Shown here in pieces: positions 1 to 17,652 of a stretch of DNA of 64,000 nucleotides. The stretch covers positions 832,001 through 896,000 of the forward strand of contig OZ241841.1 of the NCBI GenBank assembly GCA_965202665.1, in the 5' to 3' direction. The DNA comes from Candidatus Spongiisociaceae bacterium (GTDB lineage Bacteria > Actinomycetota > Acidimicrobiia > Spongiisociales > Spongiisociaceae). The position numbers were made by a program, and so were the translations under genes. Each line of letters opens with the position of its first letter. Position 1 is the stretch's first letter. The notes under the pieces were generated by a model. That model was not told the origin of the DNA and did not search any database. It saw only the letters and a program-made list of their open reading frames with translations.

Positions 1-397
1 CCTGATGCAAATCCACCGGTTGGCCGGCGGGCAACCCGTCCAAGATGGAGTCGGTAATCCGTTCCGCCAGCCGGCGCAACTCCCCGCCCAGGCGCCGGCG
101 GCTGCGTATCCAGCGGCCCAGCAAGGCCCCGTGGAAGGCGTGCTCCCTCCCCTCCATATGCAGAATCACCCGGCCGTGCACCGCCGACGAGCCGGGGCCG
201 AAGGGCAGGGGGCGGAAACTGCCGGAGTCGGACAGCGCCCGTTTCACATCCGAGTGGCGGGTGACCACCCAGCTGGCGAGCGGTTCGCACCAGAATATGG
301 GGTTGCGGGCGCGGGCTTCCCGGTACAGGGGAAAAGGGTCGGCTTCCCCGACCGCCACCGAGGCGAAGCGGGCGGAAATGTCACAGGGGGCGGTCAT
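1..397 (-). CDS. Cytochrome P450, N-terminal part (runs off window start)
   Basis: Not in ORF track. Manual minus-strand translation from ATG 397: MTAPCDISARFASVAVGEADPFPLYREARARNPIFWCEPLASWVVTRHSDVKRAL...ILHMEGREH, a typical bacterial P450 N-terminus. The heme Cys would lie outside the window. Confidence 0.75.
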   Translation of the reverse strand, partial: MTAPCDISARFASVAVGEADPFPLYREARARNPIFWCEPLASWVVTRHSDVKRALSDSGSFRPLPFGPGSSAVHGRVILHMEGREHAFHGALLGRWIRSRRRLGGELRRLAERITDSILDGLPAGQPVDLHQ

Positions 398-445
398 AAT
401 CCATGTTCAAATTGGGTCGGCTAACCTTTCGGGGACGCGGCGGCA

Positions 446-462
446 TTGTATACGGTATACTA
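446..462. promoter_or_regulatory. Palindromic GTATAC-G-GTATAC site, GntR/FadR-type operator candidate overlapping a TATACT -10 box
   Basis: TTGTATACGGTATACTA in the divergent P450/dctP intergenic gap; resembles TTGTATAC-type GntR boxes. Confidence 0.5.
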
Positions 463-515
463 CTAGGACCGTCCCCTGGAGACGCATCCGAAAAAAACCA
501 AGGAGGCAAAACAAA

Positions 516-3322
516 ATGCGCAAACTCACCGTCCTTATTCTCGCCCTGTCTTTACTGGCGGTCGCCTGCGGGGGCGATAGCGGCGAGACTACGACCACCA
601 CCGCCGCCCAGACCACCACCACGGCCGCCGCGGCCGCCGAAGAACCGGCCGCGACCACGACGGCCGCGCCCTCCCCGGTGGACGATCTGCCGGAGTTGAC
701 GGTGAATGTTGGGCATTCGGGGGCTCCGGACGGGTTTGCGGATGTGGCTTCGGTGCGGTTCAAGCAGTTGGTGGAGGAACGTTCGCAGGGGAAGATCACT
801 GTTGAGGTGTTTCCCAGCGGCCAGTTGGGAGGCGAACGGGAGTTGGTGGAAGGGGCCCAGATCGGGTCGGTGGACATGGCGGTGGTCCTGGCCGGGATTC
901 TGGAATCCTTCGTCCCCGACTTCGGGGTGCTCAACCTGCCCTATCTGTTCGACAACCGGGATCACGTGTTCTCCACCCTGGACGGGGAAGTAGGCGAAGG
1001 GCTCCTGGGCCTGCTCGACGATGTGCAACTGAAAGGATACGCCTTCGGGGAATTCGGGTTCCGGTCCATGATGACCGCCCCCCGGCCGATAAACACCCCG
1101 GCCGACCTGGACGGAATCAAAATCCGGGTCCCCGAATCCGACCTGTATATAGAAACGATGAGCCGGCTGGGGGCCACCCCCACCCCCATCCCCGGCCCGG
1201 AGATTTTCACCTCCCTGCAAAACGGAGTGGTGGAAGCGCCCACTGTCGCTGACCGAGACGCCGCTCTGCTGATGGTCGGATCCCAAGACCTGTGGAACCG
1301 GGCTGGTCAAACAGGCCGCCCACGCGGTCATCGAAGACGACGCCGGTTCGCCGAACTCCGAAACCAAGGATGGAGCATCACCGAAGTAGACAAAGCCCCC
1401 TTCCGCCAAGCAGTCGCCCCCATCTACGACGCCAACCCCGACCTGGAACCTCGCCGGGCACCGACGTGGACGCGTTGCCGGAGTTGACGGTGAATGTTGG
1501 GCATTCGGGGGCTCCGGACGGGTTTGCGGATGTGGCTTCGGTGCGGTTCAAGCAGTTGGTGGAGGAACGTTCGCAGGGGAAGATCACTGTTGAGGTGTTT
1601 CCCAGCGGCCAGTTGGGAGGCGAACGGGAGTTGGTGGAAGGGGCCCAGATCGGGTCGGTGGACATGGCGGTGGTCCTGGCCGGGATTCTGGAATCCTTCG
1701 TCCCCGACTTCGGGGTGCTCAACCTGCCCTATCTGTTCGACAACCGGGATCACGTGTTCTCCACCCTGGACGGGGAAGTAGGCGAAGGGCTCCTGGGCCT
1801 GCTCGACGATGTGCAACTGAAAGGATACGCCTTCGGGGAATTCGGGTTCCGGTCCATGATGACCGCCCCCCGGCCGATAAACACCCCGGCCGACCTGGAC
1901 GGAATCAAAATCCGGGTCCCCGAATCCGACCTGTATATAGAAACGATGAGCCGGCTGGGGGCCACCCCCACCCCCATCCCCGGCCCGGAGATTTTCACCT
2001 CCCTGCAAAACGGAGTGGTGGACGCCACCGAAGCGCCCATCTTCGCCGCGGTGACCCAAAAATATTACGAAACGCCGCTGGAGCACCTGTCGCTGACCGA
2101 GCACATCTACGCCGCTCTGCTGATGGTCGGATCCCAAGACCTGTGGAACCGGCTGGGCGACGCCGGGCAAGCCCTGGTCAAACAGGCCGCCCTCGACGCC
2201 GTCGACCACCAACGGAAGCAAAGCATCGAAGACGACGCCGGATACATCGCCGAACTCCGAAACCAAGGATGGAGCATCACCGAAGTAGACAAAGCCCCCT
2301 TCCGCCAAGCAGTCGCCCCCATCTACGACGCCAACCCCGACCTCGCCCAATGGGTAGAACGCATCCGCGGCGTAATCGGCGGAACCTCGCCGGGCACCGA
2401 CGTGGACGCGTTGCCGGAGTTGACGGTGAATGTTGGGCATTCGGGGGCTCCGGACGGGTTTGCGGATGTGGCTTCGGTGCGGTTCAAGCAGTTGGTGGAG
2501 GAACGTTCGCAGGGGAAGATCACTGTTGAGGTGTTTCCCAGCGGCCAGTTGGGAGGCGAACGGGAGTTGGTGGAAGGGGCCCAGATCGGGTCGGTGGACA
2601 TGGCGGTGGTCCTGGCCGGGATTCTGGAATCCTTCGTCCCCGACTTCGGGGTGCTCAACCTGCCCTATCTGTTCGACAACCGGGATCACGTGTTCTCCAC
2701 CCTGGACGGGGAAGTAGGCGAAGGGCTCCTGGGCCTGCTCGACGATGTGCAACTGAAAGGATACGCCTTCGGGGAATTCGGGTTCCGGTCCATGATGACC
2801 GCCCCCCGGCCGATAAACACCCCGGCCGACCTGGACGGAATCAAAATCCGGGTCCCCGAATCCGACCTGTATATAGAAACGATGAGCCAGCTGGGGGCCA
2901 CCCCCACCCCCATCCCCGGCCCGGAGATTTTCACCTCCCTGCAAAACGGAGTGGTGGACGCCACCGAAGCGCCCATCTTCGCCGCGGTGACCCAAAAATA
3001 TTACGAAACGCCGCTGGAGCACCTGTCGCTGACCGAGCACATCTACGCCGCTCTGCTGATGGTCGGATCCCAAGACCTGTGGAACCGGCTGGGCGACGCC
3101 GGGCAAGCCCTGGTCAAACAGGCCGCCCTCGACGCCGTCGACCACCAACGGAAGCAAAGCATCGAAGACGACGCCGGATACATCGCCGAACTCCAAAACC
3201 AAGGGTGGAGCATCACCGAAGTCGACAAAGCCCCCTTCCGCCAAGCAGTCGCCCCCATCTACGACGCCAACCCCGACCTCGCCCAATGGGTAGAACGCAT
3301 CCGCGGCGTAGTCGGCGGATGA
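516..3322 (+). CDS. dctP: TRAP substrate-binding lipoprotein with three tandem DctP domains (first copy deleted/frameshifted)
   Basis: RBS AAGGAGG, lipobox LAVAC, Thr/Ala linker, DctP motifs (FPSGQLGGERELVEG, DLDGIKIRVP, LQNGVVD). Frame shifts within about 1232-1470. Confidence 0.85.
688..3319 (+). repeat. Tandem 936-bp repeat x3 (units start at 688, 1476, 2412; first unit 788 bp)
   Basis: Identical shadow ORFs at 706/1494/2430; units 2 and 3 differ at only about 5 positions near their ends. Confidence 0.95.
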
Positions 3323-3362
3323 CCTCCCGCGGAGTCGGAGGGCCCGGGGAACGGCCCGACCG

Positions 3363-3908
3363 ATGAACAAAGCCCTCAACGGGTTCCACCTGTTGAGCGC
3401 CGGCCTGGAGCGGGGCCTGCGGGTCCTGCTCGGGCTGGTGTTGGCCGTCCTCACCGGCATACTCTTCCTGCAGGTAATCATGCGGTTCGTGTTCGTCAAC
3501 TCGCTCACCTGGGCGGAGGAAGTGCCCCGCATCATCCTCATCTGGCTGGTTTTCCTCGGGCTGATCCCCACCGTCAAAGGCCAGCACCTGATCATCGACG
3601 TGCTCGGCGACCGGCCCTGGCTGCGCTATCTGAGCACGGCCGTGAAATGGGCGGTGCTGGTGTTCTTTTTGGTGAAAGGCATCGACGTGGTGACCAAGGT
3701 GATCGGCCAGAAAATGCCGGTCACCGGCATCTCCCGGGCCTGGCAGTACGGGGCCGCCCCGGTGGGGGCGGGGATAGCGGCCATCGTGGGCATCGACGAG
3801 TTCATCGGCCTGATCCGCAGCCGGGCCAAGGAAACCTACGAGATGGAGAGCGTGCTGTCGGCGGCCGGAATGGCCGGAGAAGAAACCGAAACCGCGGGCG
3901 CCGGCTAG
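3363..3908 (+). CDS. dctQ: TRAP small permease
   Basis: QVIMRFVF..LTWAEEVPR motif, 4 hydrophobic segments, between dctP and dctM. Confidence 0.9.
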   Translation: MNKALNGFHLLSAGLERGLRVLLGLVLAVLTGILFLQVIMRFVFVNSLTWAEEVPRIILIWLVFLGLIPTVKGQHLIIDVLGDRPWLRYLSTAVKWAVLVFFLVKGIDVVTKVIGQKMPVTGISRAWQYGAAPVGAGIAAIVGIDEFIGLIRSRAKETYEMESVLSAAGMAGEETETAGAG

Positions 3909-3912
3909 CCCA

Positions 3913-5193
3913 ATGGAACTGTTCCTGGTTTTTTTGACCCTGTTCGGGTTGCTCATTCTGCGCGTTCCCATCTTCGCCGCCCTGGCCGGGGCCACCATCG
4001 TGGGGATACTGCTGGAACCCCGCCTGACGCTTTTGGAAGTGGTGCGCAACTCCATCATCGGCATCGACTCGCTGGTGCTGTTCGCCGCCCCCCTGTTCGT
4101 GCTGGCCGGCAACCTGATCCTGGTGGGCGGGGTGTCGGAGCGGCTCATCGGATGGGTGGACAACCTGTTCGGGTTCAGCCGCCTGCGCCTGGCCTACGTC
4201 AACGTGTTCGGTTCCATGTTCTTCGGCGGCATCTCCGGGTCGGCCACCGCCGACTCGGCCGCCATCGGATCGGTGCTGGTCCCGGCGATGAAACGGCAGG
4301 GCTACCCCACCCCCTATGCGGCGTCGGTGACCGCCGCTTCCAGTTCCATCGGCATCATCGTCCCCCCCAGCGTGCCCATGATCCTGGCCGGGGCGGCCAC
4401 CAGCGTGTCGGTCACCAAACTGTTCGTAGGCGGATACGGACCGGGGTTGCTCATCGCCCTGTCGCTGGCGACGGTGGCTTACCTGCGCCGCCCCAAAGGA
4501 TGGCAAGCGGAGCGCATCAGATGGAACTGGAAACGGATGGGGGTGCGCACTTGGCGGGCCCTGCCGGCCTTGGTGTTCCCGGTGGTGATAATGGTCGGCA
4601 TTCTGGGCGGAGTGTTCACCGCCACCGAAGCGGCGGCGGTGGCGGTGGTGTACGCCCTGTTGGTTTCCCTGCTCATCTACCGGGAACTGGGCTGGAAAGG
4701 CCTCATCAAGTCGCTGTCGGATTCGGCCATGTTCGCGGCGGTGCTGTTCATCATCGTGGCCACCGCCCAAGCCTTCGGGTGGTATCTCACTTACACCCGG
4801 GTGCCGCAAAAACTGGCCGACTTCATGCTGTCCGTCTCCGAAAGCCGGGTGGTGGTGATTCTGCTGATGATTCTGCTGCTGCTGGTGGTGGGAACTTTCA
4901 TGGAAACGGTGCCCATCGTGCTGGTTCTCTACCCCATTCTGGAGCCGATCGCCGTCCAAATCGGCATGGACCCCATCCACTACGGAGTGACTTTCATGGC
5001 CGCCATCGCGGTGGGGCTGCTCACCCCTCCCTACGGGGTGCTCTTGTTCGTCAACTCCAAAATCGCGGGCATCCCTTCCGCCCAACTGATCCGGGCGGTG
5101 ATCCCGTTCGTCATCGCCCTCGTCATCGACGCCCTGATCATCGCTTTCGTTCCGGCGTTGGTGCTGGGCCCGGTTGAATTATTCTTCGGCTAA
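3913..5193 (+). CDS. dctM: TRAP large permease
   Basis: FFGGISGSATADSAAIG, IIVPPS, GVFTATEAA, GLLTPPYG motifs. Confidence 0.95.
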   Translation: MELFLVFLTLFGLLILRVPIFAALAGATIVGILLEPRLTLLEVVRNSIIGIDSLVLFAAPLFVLAGNLILVGGVSERLIGWVDNLFGFSRLRLAYVNVFGSMFFGGISGSATADSAAIGSVLVPAMKRQGYPTPYAASVTAASSSIGIIVPPSVPMILAGAATSVSVTKLFVGGYGPGLLIALSLATVAYLRRPKGWQAERIRWNWKRMGVRTWRALPALVFPVVIMVGILGGVFTATEAAAVAVVYALLVSLLIYRELGWKGLIKSLSDSAMFAAVLFIIVATAQAFGWYLTYTRVPQKLADFMLSVSESRVVVILLMILLLLVVGTFMETVPIVLVLYPILEPIAVQIGMDPIHYGVTFMAAIAVGLLTPPYGVLLFVNSKIAGIPSAQLIRAVIPFVIALVIDALIIAFVPALVLGPVELFFG

Positions 5194-5219: not shown

Positions 5220-6662
5220 ATGAACCAGGAAACCAACCCCGCGACCGGCCCCGGGCGGGAAACATACCGGATCCTTTCCTTCGTGAACCACGTCCCGGTG
5301 CATCCCGACCTGGGCGGGTTCTTGGAGCGGGCCCGCCGGCTGGGCGTGGACGCGGTGTGCTCGCAGGGCACCGGAATGGACTTCGGCCCCTACATGCTGG
5401 GCTCCGGCACCCAATTCACCACCGACAACTTCAAAGACAACGTGCGCCCCTACCTCAAGTTCGCCCGGGAGTTGGACATTCCCTTCATCCTGTCGGTGGG
5501 AATAGCCGGGGGGCGCATACAACTCGACGCCTGCCTGGAGCGCATCGACGAAATCGCCGCCGAAGAGGACCTGCCGCTGCGGGTGGGGGTGATCGACGGA
5601 GAAGTGGACCGGGAGGCCCTGGCCGAACGGTTGCGGAACGGGGGGCGGGCCCGGCGGGCGGTGGACTCCCCCGCCCTGTCGGAATGGCTCACCCCCGAAG
5701 ACGCGCTGGCCTCCGAACACATCGTGGCCCAGATGGGACCGGAGCCGATCATGGCCGCCCTGGAGGCGGGAGTGGACGGGGTGATCACCGGCCGGGCCTT
5801 GGACGTGGGGGTGTACATGGCCCCGGCCCTTTTAGCCGGGTTCCCCAAAGGCCCGGTCACCCACCTGGCCAAAGTCATCGAATGCGCCGGCCTGGCCCTG
5901 CATCCCGGCGATCCCAGCGAACCCATCTACGGCGTTGCGGACCGGGAGGGGCTGACCGTGTATCCGCTGAGCGGCAACCAGCGGGCCACTCCCCGCTCCA
6001 TCGCCGGCCATTCCATGTACGAACGGGACAACCCGTTCCGGGAGCGCAACCCGGGCGGCTACCTGGACCTGACCGAAGCCTGGTACGAACAGACGGCGGA
6101 CGGCGGGGTGCGTTCGCAGGGGGCGGCGTGGGTGGACGAGCCGTACACGGTGAAACTGGAGGGGGCGCGGCGCAACGGCTACCGCACCGTCTCCTTCTTC
6201 GGGGTCCGCGAACCCCGTTTCATCGCCCAACTGGACGGCTTTTTGGACAACATCCGGGAAACCCTGCGCGCCTCGCGTCGCTTCGGGCATCTGGACGAAG
6301 GCAAGCATTACACGATCACCTTCGACCAGTACGGGCGCAACGGGGTGCTGGGCCCCAACGAGCCCCTGCTGGACCGGGTTCCGCACGAGATCGGCCTGCT
6401 GGTGGACGTGATCGCCGAAACCAAAGAACTGGCGGAAAGCCTGTCATACTACGTTTGCATGGAGTTGTGGATCAAGCCCTATCCGGGGCGGCAGACCACC
6501 GCCGGCAATTTGGCCACCCGCTTCGCCCCGCCCACCATCAACGTGGGCGACGCCTACTCTTTCAACGTGTGGCATCTACTGGAGTTGGACGACCCGACCG
6601 AGCTGTTCCCTTACGAAATAGCGGATTTCCCCCGACGGGCGGGGGCGGGAGGGCCGCAATGA
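5220..6662 (+). CDS. AtuA-like (DUF1446) protein
   Basis: GTGMDFGPYMLGSG, VAQMGPEPIMAAL..GVDGVITGRALD, AKVIEC, HSMYERDNP motifs; followed by DUF4387. Confidence 0.75.
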   Translation: MNQETNPATGPGRETYRILSFVNHVPVHPDLGGFLERARRLGVDAVCSQGTGMDFGPYMLGSGTQFTTDNFKDNVRPYLKFARELDIPFILSVGIAGGRIQLDACLERIDEIAAEEDLPLRVGVIDGEVDREALAERLRNGGRARRAVDSPALSEWLTPEDALASEHIVAQMGPEPIMAALEAGVDGVITGRALDVGVYMAPALLAGFPKGPVTHLAKVIECAGLALHPGDPSEPIYGVADREGLTVYPLSGNQRATPRSIAGHSMYERDNPFRERNPGGYLDLTEAWYEQTADGGVRSQGAAWVDEPYTVKLEGARRNGYRTVSFFGVREPRFIAQLDGFLDNIRETLRASRRFGHLDEGKHYTITFDQYGRNGVLGPNEPLLDRVPHEIGLLVDVIAETKELAESLSYYVCMELWIKPYPGRQTTAGNLATRFAPPTINVGDAYSFNVWHLLELDDPTELFPYEIADFPRRAGAGGPQ

Positions 6663-6976
6663 CCGCCTTGCGCGATCTGGCCGGAACCTTGCGGAGCAAA
6701 AACTCCGACCCGTTCAGCACCACCTTCGACGTCTTCTTCGACGACGAAGCCGCCTACCAGCGGGTGAAGCGGTCGGGGGTGGTCAACGCCCCGGACATCG
6801 CCCGCCTCTACGGGCTGACCGAGGACGGGGTGCTGGGCATCTACTTCCTGGACGCCGCTTTGGCCTTCAAAGTGACGCTGGCCAAAGACATACCCTCCTC
6901 CGACCCGGCCTGCAAAGACGTGTTCGGCGCCCATCAGCACCTGCAGTTGTCCAACATTGAAATTCCGGATCCTTGA
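6659..6976 (+). CDS. DUF4387 family protein
   Basis: ATGA overlap with upstream stop; LRSKNSDPFSTTFDVFF...DVFGAHQH. Confidence 0.8.
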   Translation: MTALRDLAGTLRSKNSDPFSTTFDVFFDDEAAYQRVKRSGVVNAPDIARLYGLTEDGVLGIYFLDAALAFKVTLAKDIPSSDPACKDVFGAHQHLQLSNIEIPDP

Positions 6977-7003
6977 ATCCGGCAAGCGACAGGAGGTAAC
7001 ACT

Positions 7004-7573
7004 ATGACCGTTCTGCTGGATCCCACCGCCGAAGAGTTCCGCCGGTTCGCCGCCGGGGAGGAACTGAAGCCGATCGAAGCGGCCGAGTTGAACGTGGCGG
7101 TGCTCAACTCCCGCTGGGAGAGCATGACCCGCATCTCCCAGATCCTGGACGAGCGGCTGGCCGACCGGCCCGATGTGGGACGGGTGGACCATTGGAAAAT
7201 CAAGCACTCCGAGCCGACTCCCGAAGACGTGCTGGACCAGATAACCGGAACCAGCCACTTCGCCATCCTCGGCTTGGGCAACTGAGGGGCGTGCACCGCG
7301 TGGAGTTGCCACGATGGAACCGAACTGAGAAGAAGGAACATCCCCACCGTGTTGCTGATCACCGAAGCCTTCGAAGAGTTGGCGGCCGCCACCCTGCTCA
7401 GCCGGGGGATGCCCGACCTGCCCATGATCGTCCTGCCCCACGAAACCGAGGTGCTGACCATGGAGGAGTTGCGCCCCATCGTCAACCGGGCCGTCGACTA
7501 CGACCTGTTCCCGCTAATGGACGCGGCCAAAGAAGGGGCCCTCCGGGACATCGGCTCCGCCGTCGAAATGTAA
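7004..7573 (+). CDS. UGSC-family selenoprotein (Sec at TGA 7283-7285, motif U-G-A-C), 189 aa
   Basis: Track ORFs 7004-7285 and 7349-7573 are in frame and separated by one TGA: ILGLGN-U-GACTAWSCHDGTELRRRNIPTVLLITEAF. RBS CAGGAGG upstream; SECIS-like hairpin downstream. Confidence 0.85.
7296..7317 (+). other. Bacterial SECIS-like hairpin
   Basis: CCG-CGTGG [AGTTG] CCACG-a-TGG; stem begins at +11 after the UGA, G in second loop position. Confidence 0.65.
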
Positions 7574-7597
7574 ACGGGCGGGGAGGACGATGACTCC

Positions 7598-8653
7598 ATG
7601 AGCGCGGTTTCCTCGCTTACCTCCCGGGCGTTGGAGGCGCCGCCGGGGGCGGACCTGGACGAAATCCAAGACTGGTTTCACGAACGGGACCTGTCGGACG
7701 GACTGCCCGTCATCCCCCCCACCCCGCACCGGGTGGCGGCCATGGTGGAAGGATCGGGCCTGCCCGCCGCGCGCGAAGTGGGGGTGATGAACCCGGAGCG
7801 GGGCCTGGCCACGGTGGAAAAACTGGCCGTAAACGCGGTGATGGCCGGGTGCCGCCCCGAATATATGCCGGTGGTGACGGCGGCGGTGGAGGCGATGTGC
7901 GAGCCGCTGTTCAACCTGCACGCCATCCAATCCACCACCAACCCGGCCACTCCCCTGTTCATCGTCAACGGCCCCATCCGGCGGGCGATAGGAATGAACA
8001 CCGACCGCAACCTTTTAGGGCCGGGCAACCGGGCCAACGCCGCCATCGGACGGGCGGTGCGCCTGGCCATGCGCAACATCGGAGGGGCGTACGTGGGCGT
8101 GGACCAGGCCACACACGGCAGCCCCGCCAAATACACCCTGTGCATCGCCGAAGACGAAGAGTCCAGCCCCTGGGGCCCCCTGCACGCGGACAAAGGGTTC
8201 GAGGCGGCTGATTCGGTAGTGACCGCGGCCGGGGTGGAGTCGGTTATCAACAGCACCGCGGTGTGGTGGACGGCCCCTTCGCTTATGAAAATGCTGGCTA
8301 AGACGATGCGCACCACCGCCACCAGCCAGTTTTTCTCCCGGGGAACCCTCACCCTGATGATGAGCCCCGCCCACGCCGGGGTGTTCGCCCGGGCCGGTTA
8401 CGGCAAGGAACGGCTGCGGGAAGAACTTTGGGAGGCGGGGAAGGTGCCTTTGTCCGATTTCCCGCCGGAGGGGAACATCCCGCAGGGGGAATGGACGACG
8501 GACGGGGACAAAGTGCTCCTGTGCGAGTCGCCCGCCGATCTGAACCTGATCGTGGCGGGCGGAACCGAAGGCAACGCCTCCCATTCGGTGTTTTTCTCCG
8601 GGTTCTGCCTGTCAAAAGGGGTGAGCAAAAAAATAAACTGGAGCGGACGGTGA
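7598..8653 (+). CDS. Conserved UGSC-associated hypothetical protein (DGLPVIPPT family)
   Basis: SDGLPVIPPTPHRV, ATVEKLAVNAVMAGCRPEYMPV, PGNRANAAIGRA, THGSPAKY, EDEESSPW. Confidence 0.75.
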   Translation: MSAVSSLTSRALEAPPGADLDEIQDWFHERDLSDGLPVIPPTPHRVAAMVEGSGLPAAREVGVMNPERGLATVEKLAVNAVMAGCRPEYMPVVTAAVEAMCEPLFNLHAIQSTTNPATPLFIVNGPIRRAIGMNTDRNLLGPGNRANAAIGRAVRLAMRNIGGAYVGVDQATHGSPAKYTLCIAEDEESSPWGPLHADKGFEAADSVVTAAGVESVINSTAVWWTAPSLMKMLAKTMRTTATSQFFSRGTLTLMMSPAHAGVFARAGYGKERLREELWEAGKVPLSDFPPEGNIPQGEWTTDGDKVLLCESPADLNLIVAGGTEGNASHSVFFSGFCLSKGVSKKINWSGR

Positions 8654-9771
8654 GCGGGCTGGGCGAACGGGTGCTGTCGGCCGCCCGGGCCCGGATAAGC
8701 CCGCTGGTGGACGAGTGGGAACGGTCGGGGACCTCTTTGGAAACGATGCGGGAGTTCTCCCGGGAGTTGGGTTTGACCTCTTTGCGCACTCCCGCCCATC
8801 GAGGGGGATCCCCCCGCCCGTGGGCGGAAATAACGGGAGCGGCCCGCAGCCTGGGGCGGGTGTACCGGCTGTTCGGACTGGTGCTGGTCAACAACGTGAT
8901 CGCCTCTTTTCTGGGCGAGCGGGGCTCGGACGGGCAGTGGGAAAAATGGGGGGCCCCCATTCACCGGGGAGACGCCCTGCTGGTGCTGGCCCTGACCGAA
9001 GAGGGGGCGGGCAACGACTTGGCGGCCATCGCGGCTTCAGTGACGGAGGAAGCGGGGGGCGGGTTGCGCCTCCGAGGGGAGAAAGTGTTCGCCCCGGGCG
9101 CCGACCAACTGCCGGGGGTGGTGACTTTGGCCCGGCACGGGGAGGGAACCTCCGTTCTGGCGGTCCCCACCGACGCGGAAGGGGTTTCCGTCCAGCCGAT
9201 GGGAAAGGGAATGTCGTTGCGGGGGGCGGCGATTTGCCGGGTGGCGTTCAACGACTGCCGGTTGCCTTCCGACCATCTGATCGGAACCCCCGGCCGGGGA
9301 TTGGAAGAGTTGCGCCCCCACCTGTTGGGCAGCCGGCTAAACACTTCCGGGCTGGCTTTGGGGGCGGCTGAAGAGGCTTTGGAGTTGGCCGCCGCCCACA
9401 CCGCCTCCACCGTCCGCTTCGGAAAACCTTTGAACCGGCTGGGAGCGGTGCGGCAACGGCTGGGGGACATGGCGTCCCGCGCCTCCGCCGCCAAAGCTTT
9501 GCTGGAGGCGGCGGCGGCGGCCTTGGACGACCGGGGCCCGCAGGCCGAAGCCCTGGTTTCGTCCGCCAAAGCCTTCATCACCGACACGGCGGCGGCGGTG
9601 ACCGGCGGAGCGCTGGAACTGTTCGGCGGATGGGGGTTCTTTGAGAACCGGCGGGTGGAAAGGCTGGTGCGGGAAGCGAAGCTGGGCTTGGCGGTGGACG
9701 GGGCCAACGACATCCACCGCGACATAGTCGCCCGCAGTCTGAGTCGGGGCGAACCCGGGAAAGGAGGCTAA
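8650..9771 (+). CDS. Acyl-CoA dehydrogenase family protein (divergent)
   Basis: GTG overlapping upstream stop; LALTEEGAGND, LRGEKVF, RFGKPL, LFGGWGF, DGANDIHR. Confidence 0.8.
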   Translation: MSGLGERVLSAARARISPLVDEWERSGTSLETMREFSRELGLTSLRTPAHRGGSPRPWAEITGAARSLGRVYRLFGLVLVNNVIASFLGERGSDGQWEKWGAPIHRGDALLVLALTEEGAGNDLAAIAASVTEEAGGGLRLRGEKVFAPGADQLPGVVTLARHGEGTSVLAVPTDAEGVSVQPMGKGMSLRGAAICRVAFNDCRLPSDHLIGTPGRGLEELRPHLLGSRLNTSGLALGAAEEALELAAAHTASTVRFGKPLNRLGAVRQRLGDMASRASAAKALLEAAAAALDDRGPQAEALVSSAKAFITDTAAAVTGGALELFGGWGFFENRRVERLVREAKLGLAVDGANDIHRDIVARSLSRGEPGKGG

Positions 9772-10524
9772 ATGAGCGGCGGAACGGCCATTATCACCGG
9801 AGGGGGCAGCGGCATCGGCTGGAAAATAGCCGAGACCCTGTTGGAGCGGAACCCGGACTTGGGGTGCGCCCTGGTGGATTTGCAGGAGGGTGAGTCCGGG
9901 GCGTTGCGGGAGCGGTTTCCGGAGCGGGTCCTGGTCGTGCCGTCGGACGTAACCGATCATCGGGCGGCGGAGCGGGCCGTGTCGGAAATAGCCGCCTGGC
10001 GTTCCCCGGTGCGATGGCTGGTCACCTGCGCCGGGGTGCAGATCGCGGGGGACAGTTTCGAGATGGACCCGGACGACTGGCGCAAAGTGCTCGACATTCA
10101 CCTGTCGGGGACTTTCTTCTGGTGCCAGGCGGCGGGCCGGGAGATGCGCCGCCACGGGGGCGGGGCGATCGTCACTATGGGTTCGATTGCCATGTGGTTC
10201 GGTTTTCCGGGGCGGGCCCCTTACACGGCCGCCAAAGCGGGCATCGGGGGTTTGACCAAAGTGCTGGCGGTGGAATGGGCCCCGTACGGGATCCGGGTGA
10301 ACGGGATCGCGCCGGGGATGATCCGCACCCCCCTGTGGGAGCGGGCCATGCGCAACGGCCTGGTCAACTTGGAGGACTCCGAGGCCGCCCACGCCATGAA
10401 GCGGCTGGGGGCCGCTTCGGAAGTGGCGGAGGCGGCCGCCTGGCTGCTGTCGGACGCCGCCTCCTATGTGACCGGCGACGTCCTAAAAGTGGACGGCGGG
10501 TTCCGGGCTTACAAGATCGACTGA
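9772..10524 (+). CDS. Short-chain dehydrogenase/reductase
   Basis: TGGGSGIG, YTAAK, IRVNGIAPG. Confidence 0.95.
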   Translation: MSGGTAIITGGGSGIGWKIAETLLERNPDLGCALVDLQEGESGALRERFPERVLVVPSDVTDHRAAERAVSEIAAWRSPVRWLVTCAGVQIAGDSFEMDPDDWRKVLDIHLSGTFFWCQAAGREMRRHGGGAIVTMGSIAMWFGFPGRAPYTAAKAGIGGLTKVLAVEWAPYGIRVNGIAPGMIRTPLWERAMRNGLVNLEDSEAAHAMKRLGAASEVAEAAAWLLSDAASYVTGDVLKVDGGFRAYKID

Positions 10525-10555: not shown

Positions 10556-11560
10556 ATGAGCGACAAAATCAACTGGGATCGGGTGCAGGCCTATCTGGGC
10601 AGGAGTTCCACCCGGGCGGTGCTCAAGCCGTACGGGTTTCCCGACATCACCAACCCGTTCACGTCCCGCTACGCCGATGTGGATGTGGCCCCCCGCTGGG
10701 ACATCCCCGACGAGACGGCGGTGTCGGTGGCGGTCACCGGCGGGTTTTTCATGACCCGGGACAACCCCAATCAGCCGATAAGCCCGGAGGCGATCGTGGA
10801 GGCTTCCCGTTCCTGCATGGAAGCGGGGGCCACCTCCTTGCATATTCATGTGAGAAACGAACAGGAGTTGTCCATTCTGGATCTGCAGCGGTTCGTAAAC
10901 GTGTTGGAGCCTTTGCACGAGGATTTCCCCGGTTTGTACATTTCGGCGGGCGAGGTGGCGGTGGGAGAAGAAGACTGGGAGGATATGCAGAAGTTGAGCG
11001 GGTCGGGGTTGGTAGCCGGGTCGCCGGTGAACACCACCGCCACCTTCGTGGGGGACACCCTGTTCGCCAAGCCCCCGGCGGTGATGATCGAAAAAGCCCG
11101 CATACTGCAGGATTCGGGGGTGAAACCGGAAATCGCGGTTTACACGGACGCCGATGTGGACAACGCCGACCGTTACCTGATCAAATCGGGGTTGGTGAAA
11201 CCGCCTTTCTTCTGGGTGGTGTTGCCCGCTTTGCCCGGCGGCAGTCCCATGCACAACCCGCACCAGATGGTGCAGGGCCTGAAGCGGATAGTGGATTCCA
11301 TCTTCGACATCGACCGGGAGTCGGTAATTTCAGTGTGCGCGGCCGGGCGGGCCTCGGTGTTTCTGGTTACTTTGGCGGTGTTGATGGGTTTGCACGCCCG
11401 GGTGGGGATGGAAGACACGGTGTGGCGGTTTCCGCATAAGGACGACCTGGTGGCCTCCAACCTGGAAACCTTTCAGACCATCGCCGGGATAACCGAGCTG
11501 CTGGGCCGCCCGGTGATGTCGGGGGCTCGTTTCAAAAGCATGCTGGGCATAGCGGAGTAG
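10556..11560 (+). CDS. Beta-keto acid cleavage enzyme (BKACE/DUF849, Kce-like)
   Basis: AVTG..NPNQPISPE, GATSLHIHVR (Zn HxH), HARVGMEDT. Confidence 0.9.
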   Translation: MSDKINWDRVQAYLGRSSTRAVLKPYGFPDITNPFTSRYADVDVAPRWDIPDETAVSVAVTGGFFMTRDNPNQPISPEAIVEASRSCMEAGATSLHIHVRNEQELSILDLQRFVNVLEPLHEDFPGLYISAGEVAVGEEDWEDMQKLSGSGLVAGSPVNTTATFVGDTLFAKPPAVMIEKARILQDSGVKPEIAVYTDADVDNADRYLIKSGLVKPPFFWVVLPALPGGSPMHNPHQMVQGLKRIVDSIFDIDRESVISVCAAGRASVFLVTLAVLMGLHARVGMEDTVWRFPHKDDLVASNLETFQTIAGITELLGRPVMSGARFKSMLGIAE

Positions 11561-11568
11561 GAGCCCCG

Positions 11569-11817
11569 GTGGCGACCGAAGCCAAAATCCGGGAGTTGCT
11601 GGCCCCGTTCATAACCGGTCTGGAAGCCGACGGCTACCAGTTGAAAGTGAGCCTGCAACCGGACCGCATCGATCTGCGGGTGGAGGCGGGCCCCAAGGCG
11701 TGCGCCGACTGCCTGATCCCCAAAGGAATGATGGAGGAAATGTTCCGCTCCCGCCTAACCGAAGAAGCCACCGGCCTCCCCCACGCCAACCTAACCCTAG
11801 CCCACCCCCTAGATTAA
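11569..11817 (+). CDS. Small NifU-C-like CxxC protein
   Basis: LEADGYQL...ACADCLIP pattern, 82 aa. Confidence 0.65.
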   Translation: MATEAKIRELLAPFITGLEADGYQLKVSLQPDRIDLRVEAGPKACADCLIPKGMMEEMFRSRLTEEATGLPHANLTLAHPLD

Positions 11818-12329
11818 TTCCGGGCGGGCCGACCGGTAACCGACGGCTCCGCCGCCAAAGCAAACCGGGCTTTTTCAACCTCCTCCCTGTCCCATCCCAT
11901 AGTCGCGCAAACCATTTCATCAAGAGACGCCCGGACGACATCACCGTCCGCCGTCGCGCAAACCGTTTCATCCAGAGACGCCCGCACCAAGTCGCCCTCC
12001 TGGTCCCGCAACCGCAACAAGGGACGGTCGGCAACCCGCTGGAAATGGTCCGCCAAAGCGGAAACCTGAACACGAACCCCCGCCGGAGAGCGGTCATTCC
12101 TGAGTTCTCCTAGCGATCCGTCACCAACATCCTGGTCAAGTACACCTAACAGTTCATCGGCAAACCACTTAGCGGTTGTTTGGATTAATAGGGTGGCAGG
12201 GAATTTAACTGGGGTCCAGTAATTTCTTTCGACCCTTTCCCATCCCTAGGAAACGCACTTGATCCCACCGGAACAGACGCCGTCGACTACGGCTACCGCG
12301 TCGGGGCCTTCATAGGGGTCACCGTCCAT
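11814..12329 (-). pseudogene. Interrupted reading frame; C-terminus resembles the tail of a type IIG-like R-M enzyme
   Basis: ATG 12329 coupled to MTase stop, in-frame TAG at 12248-12246, 51-bp internal duplication, ends VRASLDE..C...W....E.AR.ALAAEPSVTG. Confidence 0.45.
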
Positions 12330-13867
12330 CAGTTTGTGTCTTTGCGGCAGCTGAGTGCCTTAGCCAACTCCACGAGCAGTCCCCCGGCAGAGGACGTATC
12401 CAGCCCGGCCTCTGCCAGCGCATCTTTCACTTCGGTTGGAACCTCGGACGCCGCTTTGGCGGCCCGGCGTTCCTCCATCTCCCGGACCACCTCGGTCACT
12501 TTTCCCCCGTAAGTTATACCGTGACGCTCCAGCAACTTGGCGGTCAGGTAGCCCATCGGCCGGTCGCCTTTGGTGGCGTTGCATCCTCCGCAGAGAAGTT
12601 GCAGGTTCGAGATATGATCGGAACCGCCTTTGGAACGGGGGATGAAATGGTCCACATGATGCCCTGACTTGGGGAAGAAGTCCCCGCACCCCGCGCACAA
12701 CCCGTCCTGCTCCCCCCACAGCCATGTCTTGTGCGTATTCGGGTCGGGGAGGTCGCCCATATCGGTGCGCTTAGGCAGGTCGGTGCGATGGATGGCCAAC
12801 GTGGAAGGGAGGCCGAGTTGCTCGCCCATCCGCTCATCTGCTAGGCGGGCACACTCCGCTGAGATGTCAATCCCCACCCACCGACGTTCCAGTTTCTCCG
12901 CCGCGATAGCCGCCGTAGCGCACCCAGCAAAGGGGTCTAAGACGACATCCCCCTCGTTGGTGGAGGCTTTGATGATCCGTTCGAGCAACGCGGTGGGTTT
13001 CTGGGTGGGGTAGCCGGTGCGTTCCGGGTGCTGGCGGGCGACCGGGGTAATGTCCGTCCAAACCTGAGGGGCGGACACCCCTTTAGGTTTGTCCGTCAAG
13101 TCCACGATGCGGCCGTAACTTGGATTCTCCCGAACGCTATCCGGCACCTTGCTCCAATCGTACACCAACAGTTGCCGCTCCCCGCTACTGCGATCCCTAT
13201 TGCTGTTATACCCCTTATCAAGTTGCCTTTTCTTAGCATCGGTCATCACATATTGTTTATTGAACGTGTAGTCGTCGGAAACTGAATAAAACAGGATGAT
13301 GTCGTTGTTCTTCTGGAAGTGGCGGGCGGCGTTCGTCCACTTATTGTAATGCCACACAATCTCGTTGCGGAAGTTGTCGCTCCCGAAGATAGCGTCGAGC
13401 GCCAGCTTCAGCGAATGGGACTCCGTCGGGTCGCAGTGCAGATATATGCTCCCCGTAGGTTTCAGCACCCGCCGCATCTCCAACAGCCGCATCGCCATGT
13501 AAATCAGATATGACATTGTGCCGTCGCCACGGGCGTCCCTTGCGGCGAGGATGATGTTGTGGAGTGCCTGGTTGTCATGCTCTAACAGTTCGTGCCACGC
13601 CAGATCGACATCAGACAGATCCCAGAGATCCTTGAAGGCGGCCACCGCACCTTTGCCGCCCACCGGGGCACTCCACTCTTTCTTACTATTGAAAGGTGGG
13701 TCAAGGTAGATAAGGTCGACGCTGTCGGAATTCATGCCCCGCAACACGTGCAGGTTATCGCCGGTGAAAATGGTACGGTTGCGGATGTCGCCGATGGCTT
13801 TGTCGTCCTCGGCACGGGCCGGACGAGTGTCCTGTTTAGTGGCGGTCTTCGCAGGTTTATCCGTCAT
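12329..13867 (-). CDS. N6/N4 DNA methyltransferase (beta order) fused to C-terminal HNH nuclease
   Basis: IYLDPPF, YPTQKP, VLDPFAGCAT; CAGC...HHVDHFIPRSKGGSDHISNLQLLCGGCN. Confidence 0.92.
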   Translation of the reverse strand: MTDKPAKTATKQDTRPARAEDDKAIGDIRNRTIFTGDNLHVLRGMNSDSVDLIYLDPPFNSKKEWSAPVGGKGAVAAFKDLWDLSDVDLAWHELLEHDNQALHNIILAARDARGDGTMSYLIYMAMRLLEMRRVLKPTGSIYLHCDPTESHSLKLALDAIFGSDNFRNEIVWHYNKWTNAARHFQKNNDIILFYSVSDDYTFNKQYVMTDAKKRQLDKGYNSNRDRSSGERQLLVYDWSKVPDSVRENPSYGRIVDLTDKPKGVSAPQVWTDITPVARQHPERTGYPTQKPTALLERIIKASTNEGDVVLDPFAGCATAAIAAEKLERRWVGIDISAECARLADERMGEQLGLPSTLAIHRTDLPKRTDMGDLPDPNTHKTWLWGEQDGLCAGCGDFFPKSGHHVDHFIPRSKGGSDHISNLQLLCGGCNATKGDRPMGYLTAKLLERHGITYGGKVTEVVREMEERRAAKAASEVPTEVKDALAEAGLDTSSAGGLLVELAKALSCRKDTN

Positions 13868-16222: not shown

Positions 16223-17551
16223 TCAGTCTTTCATTTCTTTTAATTTGCTAGCCAAATTTGTTGACGCAATAAAGGCTTTTTGCTTACCAATTTGTTCCAG
16301 TTCTATAAGATCTATTCCACCTAAATACAGTAAATCATTACGGGCGGTGTTAAGAGAAACATCATGTCTATTAGCGTGACCGCGAAAGGTATACAGCCTG
16401 TCAGGATTTCTAAGAGCATCACTAAGCAATGCACGCTGGCGATAGTTCAATTCTGGAATATCACCTATTATACTGTCGACTTCTTGATTTCTCTTCAATA
16501 CGCTATCTACGTAAGTGGATAATCCTTGGAAAGCCTTGTCTAATACGTTTAGCTGATGAATCAAAAAATATGTCAGGTCATTATCGTTGGTCTCCGAATA
16601 TAAAAAGGAGTCACGATACTGTCCAGGTGCTTTATGCAACACGGCCGAAATTGAAACATATTCCATTAACCAATAGTCCCCCCGTAAGGCAGACCAATAA
16701 AAAAGTCCACGAGCCGTTCTACCATTGCCATCAGCAAATGGATGAATATAAGCTAACCAAAAATGTAACAATATGGAATGTAACAAAGGATGGGTAAATC
16801 CACCATTAGCACCGTTGGCAAAATCACATAACCTTTTTATCCGTCCCATAATCTCCTCTGCCCGCGGCGGCATGAACATTATTTTGTCTAACTCATCGAC
16901 AACTTTTGCTCTGATATCTCCTGGCCTTTGAAATCGGCCACAATCATCTGGATTTTCTAAAGTACCTTCTGTTAATTTTGCATGTATTTCACAAATCAAA
17001 TCTGGCGATAAATCTCTATTTGTTATCTCTCGTATATAGCGTATAGCATTATAATTGTTAGAAATCATCCTCTCAGAAATATCACGAGGTTTTTGTCCGC
17101 TACGAAGCATTTCTTTCGCTCTGACGCGTGTGGTAGCCGCACCTTCCAGTTGTGAAGAGGAAATGGCCTCCTCAATTATTCCTCTTACTCGATAGCTACC
17201 TCTTGTGGTAGGATTCAAAGTAGCGATTGGTGAAGCAAGCCTGCCTGTCGCCCGCATGTCAAGATTATGAAGGTGCTCCAAAACCGGATCAACCAAGCTG
17301 TAACGAAAGTAATCACCTTTTGTATTTAAAATAGGAGATGAACGAGCTATAGTATTCCTATTTAAAGCCAACCCTGCCCACCACTCATCTGTCGTAAGCC
17401 CAGCGGGCGGCGGGCGACGTCGAACCTCTTCCCAATGGAGATACCGACCATCCACAGTCGGACCTACATCTAAAACCCGATTCAAATGAATAGGGTCAAT
17501 CTTGATTAGAACATCATTAATCGCCGGAGGGTCTTCGGGCAACCGAGTCAT
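16223..17551 (-). CDS. Fic family protein with C-terminal wHTH
   Basis: HPFADGNGRTAR catalytic motif, SSQLEG inhibitory motif, TARNDL tail; visibly AT-rich. Confidence 0.93.
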   Translation of the reverse strand: MTRLPEDPPAINDVLIKIDPIHLNRVLDVGPTVDGRYLHWEEVRRRPPPAGLTTDEWWAGLALNRNTIARSSPILNTKGDYFRYSLVDPVLEHLHNLDMRATGRLASPIATLNPTTRGSYRVRGIIEEAISSSQLEGAATTRVRAKEMLRSGQKPRDISERMISNNYNAIRYIREITNRDLSPDLICEIHAKLTEGTLENPDDCGRFQRPGDIRAKVVDELDKIMFMPPRAEEIMGRIKRLCDFANGANGGFTHPLLHSILLHFWLAYIHPFADGNGRTARGLFYWSALRGDYWLMEYVSISAVLHKAPGQYRDSFLYSETNDNDLTYFLIHQLNVLDKAFQGLSTYVDSVLKRNQEVDSIIGDIPELNYRQRALLSDALRNPDRLYTFRGHANRHDVSLNTARNDLLYLGGIDLIELEQIGKQKAFIASTNLASKLKEMKD

Positions 17552-17652
17552 TATACCTACCTTTCCATTCCATGAGGTCAGCACTCACCAGACATCCAAT
17601 CCTGCCTGGCACTGCGCCAGTATACGATCCGACCATCCTAAATGTCAAATCG

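Follow-up and report, generated by a model that had tools for sequence, protein, structure and literature searches.

A stop codon within a UGSC-family gene of Acidimicrobiia very likely encodes selenocysteine: the gene, its candidate recoding hairpin and its conserved operon

What does a TGA codon in the middle of a conserved gene encode, and what would the protein containing it do in the operon around it? This question is raised by a locus of Candidatus Spongiisociaceae, analysed in a stretch of 64,000 nucleotides of contig OZ241841.1 (hereafter, the window); the genome consists of one contig of 2.77 Mb, with 64% G+C and 94% completeness. Positions 7004–7573 of the forward strand form a single 189-codon frame with a lone TGA at 7283–7285 (codon 94), and a Shine-Dalgarno-like AGGAGGT (6991–6997, +) lies 5' of its ATG start. 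The original prediction had joined two open reading frames in one frame through this TGA, and the read-through translation indeed gives the peptide as first proposed, HFAILGLGN-U-GACTAWSCHDG, in which the U-x-x-C motif takes the form U94-G-A-C97. Standard gene callers were expected to split such a gene, and translation table 11 does break the frame into 7004–7285 and 7349–7573. Sequencing error is ruled out as the origin of the TGA, because positions 6900–7700 were found to be identical, without any difference, in contigs of four of four public runs (three studies; one run is possibly the source of the assembly). A reverse-strand reading of 7004–7573 was rejected, having neither a conserved frame nor a family. 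Judged from comparison of sequences, the mid-gene stop codon very likely encodes selenocysteine (Sec).

The read-through protein was found to match the Pfam family UGSC (PF24696) with 106.7 bits against a cut-off of 25. The match spans the TGA, from residue 4 to 164 and from profile position 2 to 163 of 172, bearing out the proposed identity as a UGSC-type selenoprotein. Against NCBIfam NF041046, the score was 72.5 bits, below the equivalog cut-off of 125; therefore, the protein is filed under the Pfam family and not under the narrower NCBI equivalog. What is new here is a further member of a known family, since the family and its fusion partner were already published in 2007–2008, according to the accessible text of PMC1976440 and PMC2398784. 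Its sequence places the gene in a divergent UGSC subfamily tied to a TRAP-CmlAB-ACAD-SDR-BKACE operon. With 255 sequences, UGSC ranks fifth in frequency among the selenoprotein families of the Global Ocean Sampling survey (PMC2398784, Table 2), and it appears without a listed function in the accessible text of a 2026 review (PMC13188914), in agreement with the earlier description of such proteins as functionally uncharacterised. In the accessible text of the literature searched, no UGSC function, link to PrdB or operon was found to be described. The ESM Atlas gave no usable named match for Cys-form UGSC once PF24696 was skipped.

The UGSC family is present in 46 of 151 genomes sampled from the class Acidimicrobiia. 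A second Acidimicrobiia subfamily with the motif A-D-U-G-S-C (L038–L053, L107–L136) was also observed; it has a longer hairpin, a GUG loop in 37 of 49 TGA loci, and a partner gene that usually lies upstream. In Paracoccus ferrooxidans, the annotation breaks a TGA-form UGSC gene (L089:7411–7980) into two hypothetical proteins; this gene lies about 4 kb from selB.

How conserved is codon 94? The nearest named UGSC locus has 92% protein identity, and TGA occupies codon 94 in all 23 related genome loci. Among eight metagenome loci, seven have TGA and one has TGC, some loci being near duplicates; over the 31 and 53 loci read, the codon is TGA or TGC and never TAA, TAG or TGG. An alignment of 150 representative proteins (517 pass E 0.001) holds 139 homologues with a residue at the Sec column, comprising 130 Cys (the protein library may write U as C), 6 Ser, 2 Gly and 1 Trp, and C97 is kept in 133 of 140 rows. 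Five other representatives stop at the residue preceding the Sec column or slightly upstream, as split calls would. TGC or TGT was read directly in the DNA of locus L036 and of 11 of 18 plasmid loci. This pattern of Cys and TGA is the one for which an alignment of homologues had been proposed. The Sec machinery, also named in advance as a check, was found in full: selA, selB and selD above their cut-offs, and a tRNA-Sec (selC). The selD gene itself carries an in-frame TGA. In addition, selA was found in four of four near-complete relatives with TGA-form UGSC and was above its cut-off in none of five genomes in which the UGSC copies listed are free of a stop. The TGA-form SAR324 single-cell genome (1.9 Mb, completeness not given) yielded no selA. 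It is this conservation, together with the Cys homologues and the Sec machinery, that makes the case for Sec, and folding energy forms no part of it.

Could the TGA instead be a true stop, in a split gene or pseudogene, or be read as Trp? Databases contain both halves of the gene as separate entries (P0125–P0127, P0130), and an A/G-rich stretch lies upstream of the GTG at 7349. However, a split gene would leave the most conserved residues, G95–T115, untranslated, and the restriction of codon 94 to TGA or TGC also argues against this reading. Three database homologues (P0002, P0003 and P0004) show Trp at the Sec column, the finding that the original prediction had regarded as refuting. P0002 is 97% identical to locus L031 and P0003 is 93% identical to L033, and the DNA of both loci has TGA; judged from these two of the three, the Trp entries are most simply TGA rendered as Trp by a gene caller. 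TGA is the commonest stop in the genome (571 of 1,016 long open reading frames) and also terminates the UGSC gene in 20 of 23 relatives, so TGA does not generally serve as a Trp codon here. Trp recoding of codon 94 was rejected on these grounds, and a true stop or a Trp codon is barely credible.

The original prediction also placed a SECIS hairpin 11 nt past the UGA. A candidate hairpin does begin there, at 7296–7317 (+), with a conserved core at 7299–7313, a top stem of 5 bp (7299–7303 paired with 7309–7313) and an AGUUG loop (7304–7308) that lies 18 nt past the UGA. The bacterial SECIS model, as given in the accessible text of PMC13188914, has a loop of 3–9 nt with a G in the first two loop positions, a distance of 16–37 nt from the UGA, a stem of at least 4 bp and a minimum free energy of −7.5 or lower, and the candidate hairpin falls within all four constraints (AGUUG, 18 nt, 5 bp, −13.9 kcal/mol). 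The model as implemented here has low specificity in this GC-rich genome, being passed by 26.4% of 1,500 random TGA sites, and the folding energy has a z of only −0.79, with 44 of 200 shuffles as stable. Hairpin energy was accordingly rejected as evidence for Sec. The position and loop of the predicted hairpin thus stand, but its stability is no better than that of shuffled sequences.

Support for the hairpin comes from synonymous constraint, compensatory change and a shared loop, all read from alignments. The conserved pairs are the top stem, which forms in all 20 distinct rows, and two lower pairs only; the pair 7297–7316 forms in one of the 20. A compensatory double change from G-C to A-U was observed in L011 (reached by 20 of 500 shuffles) and recurs in the 29% G+C loci L030 and L031, and the AGUUG loop is lost in the Cys-form L036, which has TGC. 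All 24 loci encode Ser101 by AGT, which makes up 3.1% of the Ser codons of the genome, and 22 of the 24 encode Thr98 by ACA (genome usage 1.9%). Mean codon entropy was 0.31 over the six hairpin codons versus 0.95 over the 73 others, in sequences that are related. The same AGUUG loop, 16–18 nt past the UGA, occurs in three codon frames among five UxxC genes of the genome, namely the UGSC gene, a PrdB-like gene and three tandem thioredoxin-like genes; four of the five came from a screen blind to the loop sequence, and the fifth came from the loop pattern. The AGUUG-hairpin pattern has no genome-wide enrichment (17 of 58,373 TGA sites versus 8–15 at control distances), and the UGA of selD itself has no AGUUG loop. 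Nothing near an Rfam gathering score was found in 6600–8700, and a promoter and terminator scan gave matches at chance level only.

Several observations lie beside the hairpin. A purine-rich stretch with rare Arg codons follows it (7319–7340), in which codon 109 is AGA in 20 of the 23 loci with Arg there (genome usage 1.2%); this stretch may be part of the recoding signal. The three tandem genes are thioredoxin/TlpA-like, with the motif W-U-x-x-C (TGA at G000:C1 2363555, 2364871 and 2365983, +), and two of them have lipoprotein-like N-termini. The PrdB-like selenoprotein gene (PF07355; L037:1390–2307, TGA at G000:C1 1545658), with the motif V-U-P-V-C and its own AGUUG hairpin, is represented in databases by truncated halves of 167–198 amino acids and by full-length Cys forms.

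In what operon does the UGSC gene lie? Neither this operon nor the partner gene had been noticed in the original prediction. Upstream, family matches identify a TRAP importer (1292–5193, +) composed of a two-domain dctP (1292–3322), dctQ (3363–3908) and dctM (3913–5193). This is followed by an AtuA-family protein (5220–6662, +; PF07287), a homologue of citramalate lyase CmlA (PDB 9erq_A, E 1.1e-70), and by a DUF4387 protein (6659–6976, +; PF14330), a homologue of CmlB of that enzyme (PDB 9erq_B, E 1.4e-15). Downstream of the UGSC gene and its partner are an acyl-CoA dehydrogenase (ACAD) family frame (8428–9771, +), the true start of which is probably near 8650 because the family match begins at about residue 78; a short-chain dehydrogenase/reductase (SDR) identified by family match (9772–10524, +); and a beta-keto acid cleavage enzyme (BKACE/DUF849; 10556–11560, +) that does not reach the cut-off of any NCBIfam subfamily. 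Across the 22 Acidimicrobiia-type loci, to the extent that their flanks allow comparison, the genes retain the order dctP-dctQ-dctM-AtuA-DUF4387-UGSC-partner-ACAD-SDR-BKACE, and SAR324 retains it with ACAD displaced. In unrelated plasmids, the neighbours of the UGSC pair include CoA transferases, CoA ester lyases, ACADs, aconitase X, and TRAP/TTT importers. The operon likely breaks down an imported organic acid. It contains no glutamate mutase or methylaspartase gene; therefore, its substrate may differ from that of CmlAB. Literature since 2023 gave no match for citramalate lyase together with Enterobacteriaceae and methylaspartate, and DUF4387 is not named in the AtuA-related literature among the matches listed.

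An 82-aa CxxC protein (11569–11817, +) follows BKACE. It is weakly Nfu/NifU-like, a label that refers to an hhalign probability of 46% against one frame, which we take to be NifU-type, and it has no Pfam or PDB match. It was found in eight of the 31 near loci, from which its profile was built, and a domain of this type is fused to UGSC in five of 150 representatives and in Arthrobacter. Most near loci with a flank past BKACE lack the gene, as do 16 of the 18 plasmid loci and 51 of the 54 short loci.

A TrxB-like gene was found in eight of the 18 plasmid loci; if the 764 places in 7.3 Gb were spread evenly, about 0.02 would be expected in the 0.22 Mb examined, a figure to be read with megaplasmids being richer in metabolic genes than this background assumes and with the haloarchaeal loci being kin; three of the eight matches are only 30–33% identical. 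In Roseovarius, trxB lies directly beside the UGSC pair, and the order in Arthrobacter is trxB-trxA-partner-UGSC. No TrxB-like gene was found in the 31 near loci or the 54 short loci, and the genome's own trxB lies about 515 kb from the UGSC operon.

At the edges of the operon, a third copy of dctP, partial and frameshifted or mosaic (window 45–1487), precedes the tandem two-domain dctP, and relatives likewise carry tandem dctP domains. After the operon, a DNA methyltransferase fused to an HNH-like domain (12329–13867, −) and a Fic-like gene (16223–17584, −) in a stretch of different codon style were labelled from their sequences.

The gene directly downstream of UGSC (7598–8653, +) encodes a 351-aa partner with a conserved Cys85 (7850–7852). 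Its AVNAVMAGC region matches the domain "Unknown_1" of Zhang and Gladyshev (2008), shown fused to UGSC in Figure S1A of PMC2398784. Of 7,997 candidates scored, 6,185 are homologues of this protein, for which no Pfam match rises above noise. It adjoins UGSC in 23 of 23 genome loci and in 53 of 54 loci of the family or class (Acidimicrobiia), the exception being cut by a contig end. In plasmid loci, which were chosen by the partner (18 of 24 records, near duplicates skipped), UGSC is adjacent or fused to it in 17 of 18, and long fusions of the two occur in 10 of 150 representatives, together with two partial ones. All 92 aligned homologues and all 10 fusions have Cys85, as do 21 of the 22 plasmid copies in which this position is occupied.

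The predicted model of the partner has a pLDDT of 94. Its top Foldseek matches are class I fumarate hydratases (E 2.9e-4), with a TM score of 0.28–0.33, an rmsd of about 16 and a Z of 6.0, tied with chorismate mutase and encapsulin. No fold match reached a Z of 8 in searches that barely covered the residues before about 120; values of up to 6.8 were common to chorismate mutase, encapsulin, and tubulin/FtsZ domains. A PDB sequence search with the partner profile gave nothing under E 2. ESM Atlas clusters of the partner carry automatic thioredoxin-type names and no Pfam family, recognition being below a reliable level. The C-terminal part was observed to resemble the FtsZ/tubulin C-terminal domain, with a score at background level. 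In haloarchaeal plasmids (L096, L098, L104 and L106), two partner paralogues surround a single UGSC gene of the Cys form, an arrangement suggestive of three subunits.

The UGSC protein itself is predicted, with a pLDDT of 92, to consist of five strands alternating with helices, without a hairpin, and U94-G-A-C97 is placed at the junction of strand 3 and the helix that follows it. The model matches flavodoxin, receiver and LacI-type domains generically (496 chains with a Z of at least 8, top rows tied at 10–12), and thioredoxin is absent among the Foldseek/VIA rows listed. In thioredoxin, the CxxC motif follows the first core strand, and the topology includes a beta-hairpin. The strand-helix order predicted for UGSC does not fit this topology, and the fold is probably flavodoxin-like, a thioredoxin-like fold being the less probable reading of the predicted model, whereas a thioredoxin-like fold is assumed for UGSC in the accessible text of PMC2398784. 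In the PDB, no sequence match of the UGSC profiles fell below E 0.03, and those to FtsZ were weak; a weak resemblance of UGSC to the FtsZ N-terminal domain was likewise at background level.

Is the active site related to those of known selenoprotein reductases, as the original prediction proposed by drawing a parallel with GrdB? In PrdB of Peptoclostridium acidaminophilum, U-G-T-C is followed by L-E at +14/+15 and G-I-P-T at +18 to +21, and the UGSC consensus, U-G-x-C...L-E-x-x-G-I-P-T, has a register identical to that of annotated PrdB. Profile comparison by hhalign gave 70.7% (E 3.8e-5, 75 columns) against 14 PrdB-type sequences, a score inflated because these had been selected with a pattern resembling the UGSC motif; it gave 28.9% against a merged PrdB set and 12.9% (E 0.0022), in the same register, against 38 unselected PrdB-type sequences. 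The controls were 36 paralogue families (best 32%, on nine columns; next 1.4%) and 60 column shuffles (at most 3.9%), and with the Cys columns masked, UGSC and PrdB still gave 54–77%. In the genome, neither of the UGSC and PrdB HMMs finds the other's gene; the second match of the UGSC HMM is a frame that is presumably FtsZ-like. PF07355 has no match to the UGSC protein at E 0.01 and finds only one gene in the genome, at a separate locus (G000 1545277). No GrdE/PrdA-type (pyruvoyl proprotein) family match was found for the partner, and the PrdB-like profile has no solved relative in the PDB. The parallel therefore holds in its register and above controls, for PrdB-type sequences, but not in single-profile cross-detection, and its scores range from 12.9 to 70.7%. 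On sequence grounds, common ancestry of UGSC and PrdB is somewhat favoured.

What would this protein do? We consider, with a probability of roughly one in two, that UGSC and its partner act as a PrdB/GrdB-like reductase on an imported organic acid, recycled by thioredoxin. SelB would almost certainly bind the AGUUG hairpin, leading to insertion of Sec at codon 94, and the two proteins quite probably form one enzyme. In the predicted flavodoxin-like fold, the Sec motif would sit where strand 3 passes into the following helix, and the partner would hold the substrate and contribute Cys85. The selenolate would attack a carbon or sulfur of the substrate, C97, perhaps together with Cys85 of the partner, would resolve the selenolate adduct, and re-reduction would proceed through NADPH, thioredoxin reductase and thioredoxin, perhaps by way of the small CxxC protein; the even odds given above apply to these three steps jointly. 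In this genome, the thioredoxin system would be the housekeeping one. The TRAP-imported acid would be processed by the CmlAB-like, acyl-CoA dehydrogenase, SDR and BKACE steps of a putative catabolic route. The reductase is favoured because of the dedicated trxB/trxA neighbours of other UGSC copies and the PrdB register.

Two other functions were weighed against it, the main rival being an iron-sulfur (Fe-S) enzyme. Aconitase and class I fumarase contain a [4Fe-4S] cluster with three irons held by the protein and one free for substrate. UGSC and its partner might similarly form a hydro-lyase or isomerase, with U94, C97 and Cys85 of the partner holding three irons and the fourth free for substrate, the small CxxC protein delivering the cluster, and the product feeding the CmlAB-like lyase. 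The two proteins have exactly three near-invariant Cys/Sec positions, which fit Fe-S ligation equally well, and no other operon gene appears to be an obvious Fe-S client. The fusions of the Nfu-like domain to UGSC, and the aconitase X, CoA ester lyase and isocitrate lyase/PEP mutase genes beside other UGSC copies, are what favour this alternative, together with the fumarase matches of the partner; Nfu1 passes [4Fe-4S] clusters to client enzymes (accessible text of PMC5014551). The G-x-C-G-A-C-T stretch also matches, on nine columns, a paralogue family that we take to be 2Fe-2S-type. However, the fumarase match is weak and tied with unrelated folds, the Nfu-like label refers to a single frame, and the CxxC gene is missing from most loci, as described above. 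Moreover, an Fe-S enzyme would leave the trxB/trxA neighbours and the PrdB likeness unexplained. Such a hydro-lyase is somewhat unlikely, and the stronger proposal, an undescribed class of selenium-ligated Fe-S enzymes that would be loaded by a dedicated Nfu-like protein and make a hydroxy acid for the CmlAB-like lyase, is less likely still. If true, a selenoprotein among the most abundant in the ocean would serve carbon catabolism rather than antioxidant defence.

It has also to be asked whether UGSC is a general thioredoxin-type thiol-disulfide oxidoreductase or antioxidant that only maintains its partner or other operon enzymes. The predicted strand-helix alternation without a hairpin, with the motif after strand 3, argues against this, as do the flavodoxin, receiver and LacI-type matches of the model. 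Near-obligate pairing or fusion with one partner inside catabolic clusters likewise favours a dedicated enzyme, and a general oxidoreductase appears quite improbable. The reductase thus remains the preferred reading.

Another UGSC member is in itself routine, yet UGSC genes are split by gene callers. The function is directly testable, because the compact operon contains enzymes of known chemistry (CmlAB homologues, BKACE and the TRAP binding protein) and its conservation extends from Acidimicrobiia as far as SAR324. The label "thioredoxin-like" would be corrected by the flavodoxin-like model and the PrdB-like register, and the Nfu-like third component sets a reductase clearly against an Fe-S enzyme as the two options. 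Elsewhere in the genome, ARAGORN reported a tRNA with anticodon TTA ("tRNA-Stop"; G000:C1 1560765–1560846, −), which may be a pseudo-tRNA or the remnant of an attachment site.

How does this locus compare with known systems? With the published UGSC family, it shares the Sec position of the UxxC motif, a near-full PF24696 match and the pairing with Unknown_1; it differs in having U-G-A-C, with Ala at this position in 22 of 140 rows. The two-subunit citramalate lyase CmlAB (PDB 9ERQ, 9EVF) is a likeness of the operon neighbours, at moderate identity, and not of the selenoprotein. Compared with class I fumarase and aconitase-type hydro-lyases, UGSC and its partner have three conserved thiol or selenol residues that might serve as ligands, but these would be split over two proteins and include Sec, and the structural scores are at background level. 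With PrdB/GrdB, represented by the PrdB-type sequences compared, UGSC shares U-G-x-C followed by L-E-x-x-G-I-P-T in exact register. In those systems, a Sec subunit works with another protein that binds the substrate and with a source of dithiol (accessible text of PMC13188914). Unlike PrdB, UGSC lacks the N-terminal part of about 140 residues, and it has UxxC whereas GrdB has UxxCxxC. Its operon is without grdA, grdC and prdA, and its partner is not GrdE/PrdA.
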